A DNA stretch of 64,000 nucleotides from Escherichia coli. Lineage in GTDB: Bacteria; Pseudomonadota; Gammaproteobacteria; Enterobacterales; Enterobacteriaceae. The translations under genes and the position numbers were made by a program. Positions 58,134-62,240 of this stretch are shown piece by piece (positions within the stretch are counted from its first letter, which is position 1; every line of letters begins with the position of its first letter). The DNA lies in assembly GCF_024223415.1 (NCBI RefSeq), contig NZ_CP100500.1; one strand, 5' to 3'. The notes beneath the pieces were generated by a model. That model made no database searches and was not told the DNA's origin. It was given only the letters and a program-made list of their open reading frames with translations.

Positions 58134-61100
58134 TTAGTCAAACGGCGGTGGGGCCAGCACTTCACGATTACCGTTGTGCCCCTGTTCGCTGACAATCCCC
58201 TGCGCTTCCATCTGTTCGATAATACGCGCTGCACGGTTATAACCAATGCGGAACTGACGCTGTACGCCAGAAATTGACGCTTTGCGTTTTTCAGTGACAA
58301 ACTGCACCGCCTGATCGAACAACGGATCCAGTTCTTCAGCGCCATCGAAACCACCCGCACCACCTTCGCTTTCGCTGTCGGAGGTGATGCCATCAACATA
58401 CTGTGGGCGACCACGCGCTTTCCAGTCCTGCACCACGGCATGAACTTCCTGATCGCGAACAAAAGCACCATGGACACGTACCGGCAACGTGGAGTTCGGC
58501 CCAGAGTAGAGCATATCCCCCATACCCAGCAGTGATTCCGCGCCAGCCTGATCAAGAATGGTACGTGAGTCAATCTTACTGGATACGGTAAAGGCGATAC
58601 GGGTCGGAATATTCGCTTTAATCAGACCAGTAATAACATCAACCGATGGACGCTGAGTTGCCAGTACGAGGTGGATACCCGCGGCACGGGCTTTTTGCGC
58701 CAGACGTGCTATCAGCTCTTCCACTTTTTTACCTACCGTCATCATCAGGTCGGCAAATTCATCCACCAGCACCACAATGTATGGCTCTTTTTTCAGCACC
58801 GGATGCTGAGCATCCATACTGTCACCCGGCTTCCAGTACGGGTCTGGAATCGGACGCATCATGCGATCGGCTTCAGCAATTTTTTCGTTATAACCCGCCA
58901 GATTACGCACACCCAGCGCAGACATCAGTTTATACCGACGCTCCATCTCGTTAACACACCAGCGCAGCGCGTTGGCGGCATCTTTCATATCAGTAACGAC
59001 TTCCGTTAACAGATGCGGAATGCCTTCATAAACCGAAAGCTCCAGCATTTTCGGGTCGATCATGATGAAACGCACATCTTCTGGCTGCGCTTTATAAAGC
59101 ATGCTCAGGATCATCGCGTTCACACCGACAGACTTACCGGAACCGGTAGTCCCCGCAACCAACAAGTGCGGCATTTTCGCCAGATCGGCAACCACCGGCT
59201 CACCGGCGATATCTTTACCCAGCACCACGGTTAATGGCGACGGATTATCGCGGAATTTGGCGTTATCCAATACTTCGCGCAGATAAACGGTTTGTCGTTT
59301 TTTATTCGGTAACTCCAGACCTACATAGGGTTTGCCAGGAATAACTTCAACGACACGCACCGCCACCGTCGAAAGTGAACGGGCAAGGTCCCGTGACAAG
59401 TTAGAAATGCGCGCCGCTTTTACGCCCGGTGCCAGGTTAAGTTCAAAGCGAGTGATAACCGGCCCCGGAGAGTAATTGACGACATCGGCTTTAATACGGA
59501 AATCAGCCAGACGTGCTTCCACCAGACGCGCCATTTGTTCAAGCGCAAAGGTATCTACCGGCTCCACTTCGCTCGGCGGCGGTGTCAGCAAATCCAGAGA
59601 AGGCAGCGGCGTCGTCGGTTTATGCAACGGACGGCTGTCGCCATTACGCATCAACAGCGGATGAAGCAGAGTATCCTGCGGCTGTGGCGCAACTGGCTGT
59701 TGCGGCTGCTGATATTGCGGCTGTGGTGCAGCCGATTGTTGTGGCTGCTGATACTGCGGCTGCGGCGCAACTGGCTGTTGCGGCTGCTGATATTGCGGCT
59801 GCGGTGCAACCGGTTGTTGCGGCTGCTGATATTGCTGCTGCGGTGCAACCGGTTGTTGCGGCTGCTGATATTGCTGCTGTGGCGCAACCGGCTGTTGTGG
59901 CTGCTGATACTGCTGCTGCGGTGCAACCGGTTGTTGCGGCTGCTGTACAGGTTCAACAATTGGCGTAAACAACGGTTCGTGTGGACCATCATCCAGCAAC
60001 GCTTTCATTGGCGAAAATTCAAAATCATCCAGCGAGAACGGATTCGCCCCAGCCGGTTGTTCGCCGGAATAACGTTGTTGTTGAGTTTGCGCAAACTGAC
60101 GAGCCAGTTCAGCCTCTGCCGCAGCATCTGCATCTTCTGCGTTTACGGGCACATCATGTTGATACTGTTCGCCATAGCGTTGCTGCTGTGTCTGGGCGAA
60201 CTGACGTGCCAGTTCATCCTGCTGCATCGCATCGATTTCATCATCGTTATACTGATCGCCAGAATCGTACTGATTGCGCTGGGCTTCACGGGCTTTTTCT
60301 TCCGCCGCACGCTGTGAGGGCAGCTTAATACCGTAAGACGCCAATTCACGACGAGTTGGCACGCGGATACGTTTCGGTCGTGGCAACTGCGGGCCAATCC
60401 CCTCTTTGACCTGCGGACGCGGTCCACCGCTATTTGCCAGACTGAAGACTGGCGCGGCAACGGTTGCGGCAGCCCCCGTCGCCAGTGTCGCTTTTTTCAC
60501 GCCAGATGCCAGCGGAGAAACAGCGGCAGCGGCTTCTACTGGAGGTACTGCTGCAACAGAAGGTGCTTTCAGCGAAGATTTGATCGGTTCTGGTTCTTTA
60601 ACCGGTTCTGGAATCGGTTGATACCAGGCCGCAAGTTGTTCACGTTCACGGGCTCGCTTCTCTTCCACTTCTTCAAAGTAGTAAAGCGGCGGACGCGCGG
60701 GTTTTGTCTCTTCTACAACGGGTTCAGGCTCCACAATAGGCTGCTGTTCAACAGGTTGCTGCTGTTGGTACAACGGCTCCTGAGCGGCTGGCTGCTGATA
60801 AGTTTGCTCAGTCTGGTATGTAGACTGTGGAGCAAAAGTGGATTGCTGCTCTTCGGCTTGCCAGGCGTTACCTGCCACCGGTTGTTCTGGCGCAGGGGCA
60901 TAATACGGCTGTTGCGCAGGCTGTTCCGGCGCAGTTGCGTAATACGGTTGCTGAACAGGTTGTTCCGCCGCAGGAGCGTAGTAAGGTTGTTGCGCAGGTT
61001 GTTCAGCTGCAGGTGCATAATACGGCTGCTGCGGCTGTACTGGTTGTTGCAGCGGCTCATTATATTGCACTGCAGGCTGCGCATATTGTGACTGCTGTGG

Positions 61101-62240
61101 GTAACCTTCCGGTGCAGGAGCAATAACCGGCTCTCCCGTTTGTGGACCCGGTACAGGCTGCCAGGCTACTGTAGGTTGCGCAGGTGGAACATCAACAGAG
61201 GCAACAGGTGGCGTCTGAGTCACAGGTTCAACCGGTGCAGCCCAGCTTTGCGTCGCCGTGGTAGCAGCAGCTGCTACAGCGACAGGTTCGGTAATTGGCG
61301 CACCGTTTAATAATGGATCGTATTCGTCATATTCTGGCTGCGTTGCACGATTGCCCGAAAATAGGACGTCGTCCGGGTCGGCAGCCACACCGCGTGCAGT
61401 GTAGGTAATCTCTTCGTCATCATCCATCCGCTTACCGGAGAACAACGCAGCGTCTGTTTGCCGCCCCATCGGATTAATGAATTTTTCCGCCAACCGTTTA
61501 CGACGCGCTAGCGCGCCGCGAAGAATACGGGCACGGCGTGATTCATGCTGTTTGCCGTGATTTTCATCTTCATACTCTTCGTCGTCTTCATACTCATCTT
61601 CATCGACCCAGGTATCATCGCGACGGGTACGATTACTGGCGAAGGTGAGAATGTTTAAAATCCAGCCGCCGAGTTTTTCAGCAATGGTCACCCATGACCA
61701 ACCGGTGAACAACGTCAGGCCCGCTGCCCAAACGCAGAGCAGCGCAATAGTTCCCCCGCTACTGTGTAGCAGTGGTTGTAGCGTAGTGCTTAGTAAGCTG
61801 CCAATGACGCCACCGGAGGCAAAATACCAGATATCGTCAGCGTTGATTGCCGCCAGACCACAGGAGGTAAGGATGAGCGCCAAAACGCCAATGATGCGTA
61901 GCGAAACGGCAAAATAATCAATGTATTCGTCGCTGGACTGATGACGCCAGGCAAACCAACAACCGCCGACAATAATGACGGGAATGGTGTAAGCCATCAC
62001 GCCAAAAATAAAGAACAGCGTATCTGCCAACCACGCACCGGGCATCCCACCTAAATTATGGATAGGTTCATGCCAGGCCGTTTGCGACCAGCTGGGGTCC
62101 GAAGGGTTAAAGCTTAGTAAGGCAGCCATCAACCAGACGGCAAACAGGACAATAAGGATCAGCAACGCCTCCAGAAGGCGGCGGCCGCTACTTAACTTTG
62201 TCAATGTGACTTCTTTGTCTTCAGTGTATTCCTGGCTCAA
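58134..62240 (-). CDS. ftsK: DNA translocase FtsK
   Basis: 1368 aa with N-terminal transmembrane helices, a long Pro/Gln-rich linker with tandem repeats, and a C-terminal motor with Walker A ([10 protein letters not shown]) and the gamma domain. Confidence 0.97.
59680..59950 (-). repeat. in-frame tandem ~39-bp repeats encoding the PQ-rich FtsK linker
   Basis: Repeated unit on the plus strand (ggctgttgcggctgctgatattgcggctgcggtgcaacc and variants) encoding ...[13 protein letters not shown]... about seven times. Confidence 0.8.

Follow-up and report, generated by a model that had tools for sequence, protein, structure and literature searches.

Two in-frame 39-bp minisatellites in the FtsK linker of an Escherichia coli chromosome coincide with established strain-typing loci

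The window, that is, the whole stretch of DNA analysed here, comprises 64,000 nucleotides of the E. coli contig NZ_CP100500.1 (assembly GCF_024223415.1). The ORF list and its translation place ftsK on the minus strand at positions 58134-62240, where 1368 codons and a stop codon follow a TTG start; alignment showed the same start codon in K-12 b0890. The surrounding gene order, trxB-lrp-ftsK-lolA-rarA, is that of K-12. The matched gene carries an ftsK annotation, at an identity of at least 95%, in 5,425 of 5,426 complete E. coli genomes. The near-identical record from strain SCU-316 annotates it as ftsK with a length of 4107 bp. The one remaining genome of the 5,426, which bears the label E. 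coli, lacked an ftsK match in every search; this record may be mislabelled or incomplete. Pfam searches identified the N-terminal septum-targeting four-transmembrane (4TM) domain (FtsK_4TM, PF13491, aa 20-191, E 5e-42), the alpha domain (FtsK_alpha, PF17854, aa 879-979), the P-loop motor, or beta domain (FtsK_SpoIIIE, PF01580, aa 987-1200), and the gamma domain associated with KOPS/XerD (FtsK_gamma, PF09397, aa 1303-1363), the last three far above their gathering scores. The encoded protein is FtsK, a DNA translocase of the FtsK/SpoIIIE family and of the Enterobacterial long-linker type, with a complete domain architecture.

Between the 4TM and alpha domains lies the linker (FtsKL; positions 59607-61667, minus strand, aa 192-878), which holds two tandem repeat arrays, A and B. 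The Pfam search of the window FtsK found no domain within aa 192-878, and the composition, determined over aa 180-857, is dominated by glutamine (16%), proline (14%) and alanine (14%). The domain gap and the P/Q/A-rich composition are consistent with intrinsic disorder. The FtsK linker has been described as unstructured, Pro/Gln-rich and of a length that differs between species, with approximately 650 aa in E. coli, 200 in Vibrio and 125 in Pseudomonas (PMC5357621).

Array A occupies positions 59676-59945 (minus strand, aa 766-855) and consists of 6.92 units of 39 bp, or 13 aa. The unit QQPVAPQ(Q/P)QYQQP is read in frame as six full copies and a 9-aa partial copy, and the array ends 23 aa short of the FtsK alpha domain. 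Tandem Repeats Finder (TRF) called it at 59677-59945 with 6.9 copies of 39 bp, 87% matches, no indels and a score of 398. These bounds nearly coincide with those of the 39-bp (13-aa) repeat that the first-pass annotation had placed at 59680-59950, and its assignment of this repeat to the FtsK linker was likewise correct, since array A sits between the 4TM and alpha domains. Exact repeats within the array reach at most 43 bp. Antisense and out-of-frame ORFs also run over array A (for example 59535-60317, plus strand, 260 aa, and 59651-59992, minus strand, 113 aa); we discounted them, taking them for stop-free frames that arise incidentally where a well-supported gene contains CAG/CTG/CCG-rich repeats.

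Array B lies outside the interval flagged by the first-pass annotation, at positions 60876-61031 (minus strand, aa 404-455). It is also a 39-bp (13-aa) tandem repeat, with four units of the form QQPYYAPA(A/P)EQP(A/V), and TRF called it at 60880-61033 with 3.9 copies and 77% matches. No exact internal repeat in array B is longer than 14 bp. The pooled between-unit pN/pS was approximately 0.11 in array A and approximately 0.08 in array B (pS 0.74), values to be read qualitatively because pairs of units are non-independent and gene conversion is a complication. Since the differences between units are mostly synonymous, the units appear to be old and their peptide motif conserved, and with such a motif the arrays may not serve purely as a passive spacer. 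A common ancestral unit for the two arrays was considered and rejected: the consensus units, in their best-matching rotation, had an identity of 21/39, against a codon-shuffle mean of 21.3 (3329 of 5000 shuffles reached 21/39). Past their composition, no relationship is detectable between the units of arrays A and B.

In MG1655 the ftsK gene (b0890) is 3990 bp long and encodes 1329 aa, which is 39 aa shorter than the window protein. Both of these protein lengths had been given correctly by the first-pass annotation, which ascribed the difference to extra copies of the repeat it flagged. A three-way protein alignment combined with allele dissection showed this to be one-third right: 13 of the 39 additional residues (one unit) are in array A, with 6.92 units versus 5.92 in K-12, and the other 26 (two units) are in array B, with 4 units versus 2. 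Outside both arrays the two proteins have 1226 aa each. K-12 is not a neutral standard for the length of FtsK, as 1329 aa represents a common allele with several others beside it, 1368 aa being about as frequent in complete genomes.

Fifteen further ftsK alleles, picked to cover the different gene lengths, were dissected together with that of the window, 16 in all; conserved anchors (IVEPV...DTLLHP and EPLQQPVQP...AGNAWQ) delimited the two arrays for parsing. The shortest FtsK in this set has 1277 aa and the longest 1407 aa; array A comprises 0.92 to 9.92 units and array B 2 to 4 units. The remainder outside both arrays is 1226 aa in all alleles but one (1227 aa). Across these 16 alleles, arrays A and B account for essentially all of the natural length variation in FtsK, mostly by whole units. 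A total of 1368 aa is reached with 6.92+4 units in arrays A and B, respectively (the window and ZH063), or with 7.92+3 units (strain E1), and 1329 aa with 5.92+2 units (K-12) or 4.92+3 units (Z1323PEC0014). The same total length thus arises from differing combinations, so FtsK length alone cannot identify the array involved and an alignment is needed. Even where total lengths agree, alleles differ in their unit variants and in unit order, so the arrays must still be subject to point mutation and rearrangement.

A few alleles deviated from whole-unit steps or had extreme counts. In B2-type alleles, represented by UTI89, array A is 24 bp (8 aa) shorter, which is not a multiple of 39 bp (the 1077-bp class), and the 3' units stand in a shifted register, indicating an internal sub-unit deletion and not the loss of a whole unit. 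Array B of strain 88-3493 is 12 bp (4 aa) shorter, with 3.69 units and a deletion in the first unit, again not a whole-unit step; judged by gene length only, several O169:H41 and related records share the 4095-bp ftsK of this strain. Two complete genomes, EC2001 (FtsK 1290 aa) and HCP4S3_I4 (1277 aa), have only 0.92 units in array A while their ftsK genes are annotated as intact. Either array A is wholly dispensable or the two assemblies are collapsed.

To estimate allele frequencies, the 5,426 complete E. coli genomes were searched with three queries carrying unique flanks, and the span between the flanks was taken as the allele length. From each similarity ranking 60 rows were drawn at even steps, and allele counts were made over 58 (array A), 59 (array B) and 54 (whole gene) genomes. 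The genome collection is biased, with many O157, ST131 and K-12 derivatives, and its frequencies are therefore approximate: array A had the span of the window in 27 of 58 genomes and was one unit shorter, the K-12 state, in 21, the others being one unit longer (4), two units shorter (2), 24 bp shorter (3) or six units shorter (1). For array B, 4 units (the window state), 3 units, and 2 units (the state of K-12 and O157) were found in 20, 20 and 19 of 59 genomes, about one third each, subject to the same bias. With the same reservation, the length of ftsK was 4107 bp, as in the window, in 15 of 54 genomes, 3990 bp, as in K-12, in 17, 4029 bp in 8 and 4068 bp in 7; the rarer lengths in this sample were 3873, 3951, 4044, 4071 and 4146 bp. 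The O157 genomes in the sample shared a single allele state.

These distributions bear directly on how the repeat had been characterised. The term hypervariable proved apt for array A, whose copy number is polymorphic among strains, with six length states in the even-step sample of 58 genomes and 0.92 to 9.92 units among the dissected alleles. The term expanded holds only relative to K-12, as the count in the window is the commonest array A state. It had further been supposed that the repeat number sets this gene apart from reference FtsK sequences; the O157:H7 and ST131 references carry the array A count of the window, which is the very observation named at the outset as speaking against that view.

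Both arrays have a history as typing markers. One study of avian pathogenic E. coli (APEC) lists 'CNV001 (ftsK)' with primers (PMC11773471), and a study of urinary tract infection (UTI) isolates used the original Lindstedt CVN001 primers and calculated the allele as (product size - 250)/39 (PMC8143711). In a Shigella study that used the primers of Gorge et al., ms07 and CVN001 are treated as one locus, and ms06 is listed as another with a 39-bp unit (PMC4553163). The CVN001, ms07 and ms06 primers, including the APEC-paper variants, each matched the window perfectly at a single site. Array A lies between the CVN001 primers and likewise between the ms07 primers, and array B between the ms06 primers. 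With the Lindstedt pair (AACCGGCTGGGGCGAATCC / GGCGGCGGTGTCAGCAAATC) the CVN001 product spans positions 59575-60058 and measures 484 bp, giving allele 6 (6.0), while the K-12 product of 445 bp gives allele 5 (5.0). The ms07 product (Gorge primers) spans 59580-60205 and is 626 bp in the window and 587 bp in K-12. The ms06 product (Gorge primers at 60763-60782 and 61122-61141) spans 60763-61141 and is 379 bp in the window and 301 bp in K-12. An in silico MLVA result can accordingly be read straight from the window: CVN001 = 6 and ms06 = 4 units.

CVN001 of the Lindstedt generic E. coli MLVA and ms07 of the Gorge E. coli/Shigella MLVA are thus the same locus as array A, without any difference, and ms06 of the Gorge scheme is the same locus as array B. 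In Swedish ESBL-producing E. coli, CVN001 alleles 4, 5, 6, 7 and 8 made up 1%, 40%, 40%, 13% and 5%, respectively (PMC5217547), which makes the window allele one of the two commonest, and published MLVA profiles of ST131 have 6 as their first digit (PMC3407997, PMC3877011). Shigella sonnei has ms06 alleles 2, 3 and 4, and ms07 alleles 2 and 4-8 (PMC4553163); the three ms06 alleles equal the three array B states of our genome sample. The PCR-sized allele data, which are independent of assembly, agree with the genome samples. This minisatellite has been in use since 2007-2008 for typing E. coli, Shigella and, through Salmonella ftsK, Salmonella. We hold it to be very probable that both arrays are established strain-typing loci showing an ordinary, already described in-frame VNTR polymorphism of little biological weight.

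Repeats in the ftsK linker are also found in other genera. In Salmonella enterica, ftsK contains a 39-bp VNTR, STTR7 (= SENTR2), which is a typing locus with 9.3 copies in S. Enteritidis NCTC 13349 (PMC2430564), and natural indels of the linker repeats in Salmonella FtsK have been described (PMC6137255). STTR7/SENTR2 belongs to another genus but resembles the E. coli arrays in unit length (39 bp), in its place in the ftsK linker and in its use for MLVA. FtsK of Klebsiella pneumoniae (CP125156.1, 5.37 Mb) has 1417 aa. Its gene has the E. coli neighbours (lrp-ftsK-lolA), and its linker is likewise rich in Pro/Gln/Tyr and contains tandem repeats in frame; however, at the position of array B the linker has 6.2 copies of a 72-bp (24-aa) unit and 3.1 copies of a 51-bp unit (1518-2069 of the extracted sequence), and at the position of array A the K. 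pneumoniae ftsK contains no tandem array, just degenerate PQ-rich sequence. Judged from these sequences, repeat arrays in the linker are replaced from one genus to the next, whereas its PQY-rich composition persists. A mobile ftsK or repeat carried on plasmids was rejected as a candidate: the 13 'plasmid' matches in PLSDB are chromosomes or chromosome fragments of 73 kb to 5.4 Mb, all typed as non-mobilizable. Several of these records, at 4.8-5.4 Mb, have the size of whole chromosomes and others measure 73 kb to 1.3 Mb; they look like mislabelled chromosomal deposits.

Arrays A and B are two in-frame minisatellites of 39 bp (13 codons), set in a Pro/Gln-rich linker within FtsK, an essential DNA translocase. 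Units are gained and lost, we propose, most likely when replication slips or neighbouring units recombine unequally. As the unit consists of 13 whole codons, each gain or loss would change the flexible tether by 13 residues with the reading frame kept. The tether connects the septum-anchored N-terminal 4TM domain with the C-terminal motor, and neither domain should be disrupted by such length steps. Length changes appear to be tolerated, with many length alleles carried by natural E. coli, and we infer that changes of one unit are functionally near-neutral. The window combines the commonest array A allele (CVN001 6; 5 in K-12) with a 4-unit array B allele (2 in K-12), giving 1368 instead of 1329 aa.

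Could the additional units be an artefact, produced by expansion or mis-join of a repetitive region during assembly? Array A, at 269 bp, exceeds the usual length of a short read, minisatellites in general are prone to mis-assembly, and the 0.92-unit arrays of EC2001 and HCP4S3_I4 may be either true deletions or collapses. Yet the 4107-bp ftsK is present at approximately 100% identity in four other complete genomes (SCU-316, O78 strain 3, NCTC9112 and GPEC1446), whose bit scores of 7585-7574 correspond to a few mismatches at most and which come from different hosts and strain collections; in the region around ftsK, SCU-316 and the window disagree at a single base out of 8,867 compared. The unit counts of the window recur in O157:H7 for array A and in ST131 ZH063 for both arrays. 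The units can moreover be told apart at synonymous sites, with exact repeats short enough in both arrays to leave unique sequence within ordinary reads, and the copy number in the window is one of the two commonest among PCR-sized MLVA alleles, which were measured without assembly (PMC5217547). The concern raised in the first-pass annotation about collapse or expansion is not borne out for this gene; from these comparisons an assembly artefact in the window ftsK is unlikely, and we regard such an origin of the additional units as exceedingly improbable.

A different alternative accepts the units as real and holds that the number of PQ repeats is functionally tuned, such that tether length or the count of the 13-aa motif sets how far the motor reaches from the septum or how it contacts the divisome, with selection maintaining lineage-specific alleles. 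If this were true, CVN001 and ms06 alleles would be adaptive and lineage-specific, not neutral, and the low pN/pS would mark a functional peptide motif. The motif is indeed conserved between units despite synonymous divergence (pN/pS approximately 0.1), and alleles are stable within clones, with ST131 nearly always at 6 (PMC3407997, PMC5217547) and the sampled O157 genomes in one state; such clonal stability is, however, expected from descent alone. In PMC5357621, which cites Bigot 2004 and Dubarry 2010, large linker deletions are reported to cause filamentation and parts of the linker to contact FtsZ, FtsQ, FtsL and FtsI. Against tuning of the repeat number, array A varies from 0.92 to 9.92 units in genomes with ftsK annotated as intact, one total length is reached from differing combinations of A and B, and in K. 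pneumoniae the lack of an array at A and the 72-bp array at B show that conservation of the specific arrays does not extend even across Enterobacteriaceae. An exchange of Salmonella Enteritidis ftsK alleles whose linkers differ by 2 of 9 repeats left the only phenotype assayed, survival in egg white, unchanged (PMC6137255). We therefore give little credence to functional tuning, though somewhat more than to an assembly error, and favour near-neutral length variation of the two minisatellites.

Two further repeats in the linker differ from arrays A and B in their behaviour. At 61563-61604 (minus strand, aa 213-226), just past the 4TM domain, TRF called a low-score repeat of seven 6-bp copies (TTCATC) that encodes an acidic run; it is identical in K-12 and constant in length among the 16 alleles. 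Between the arrays, an exact 14-aa duplication is located at 60069-60110 (aa 711-724) and 60174-60215 (aa 676-689), both on the minus strand, with the copies 35 residues apart. The duplication is also present in K-12, and in Klebsiella as ELARQFAATQQQRY; in contrast to the PQ arrays it is conserved, with a constant copy number in the alleles examined.
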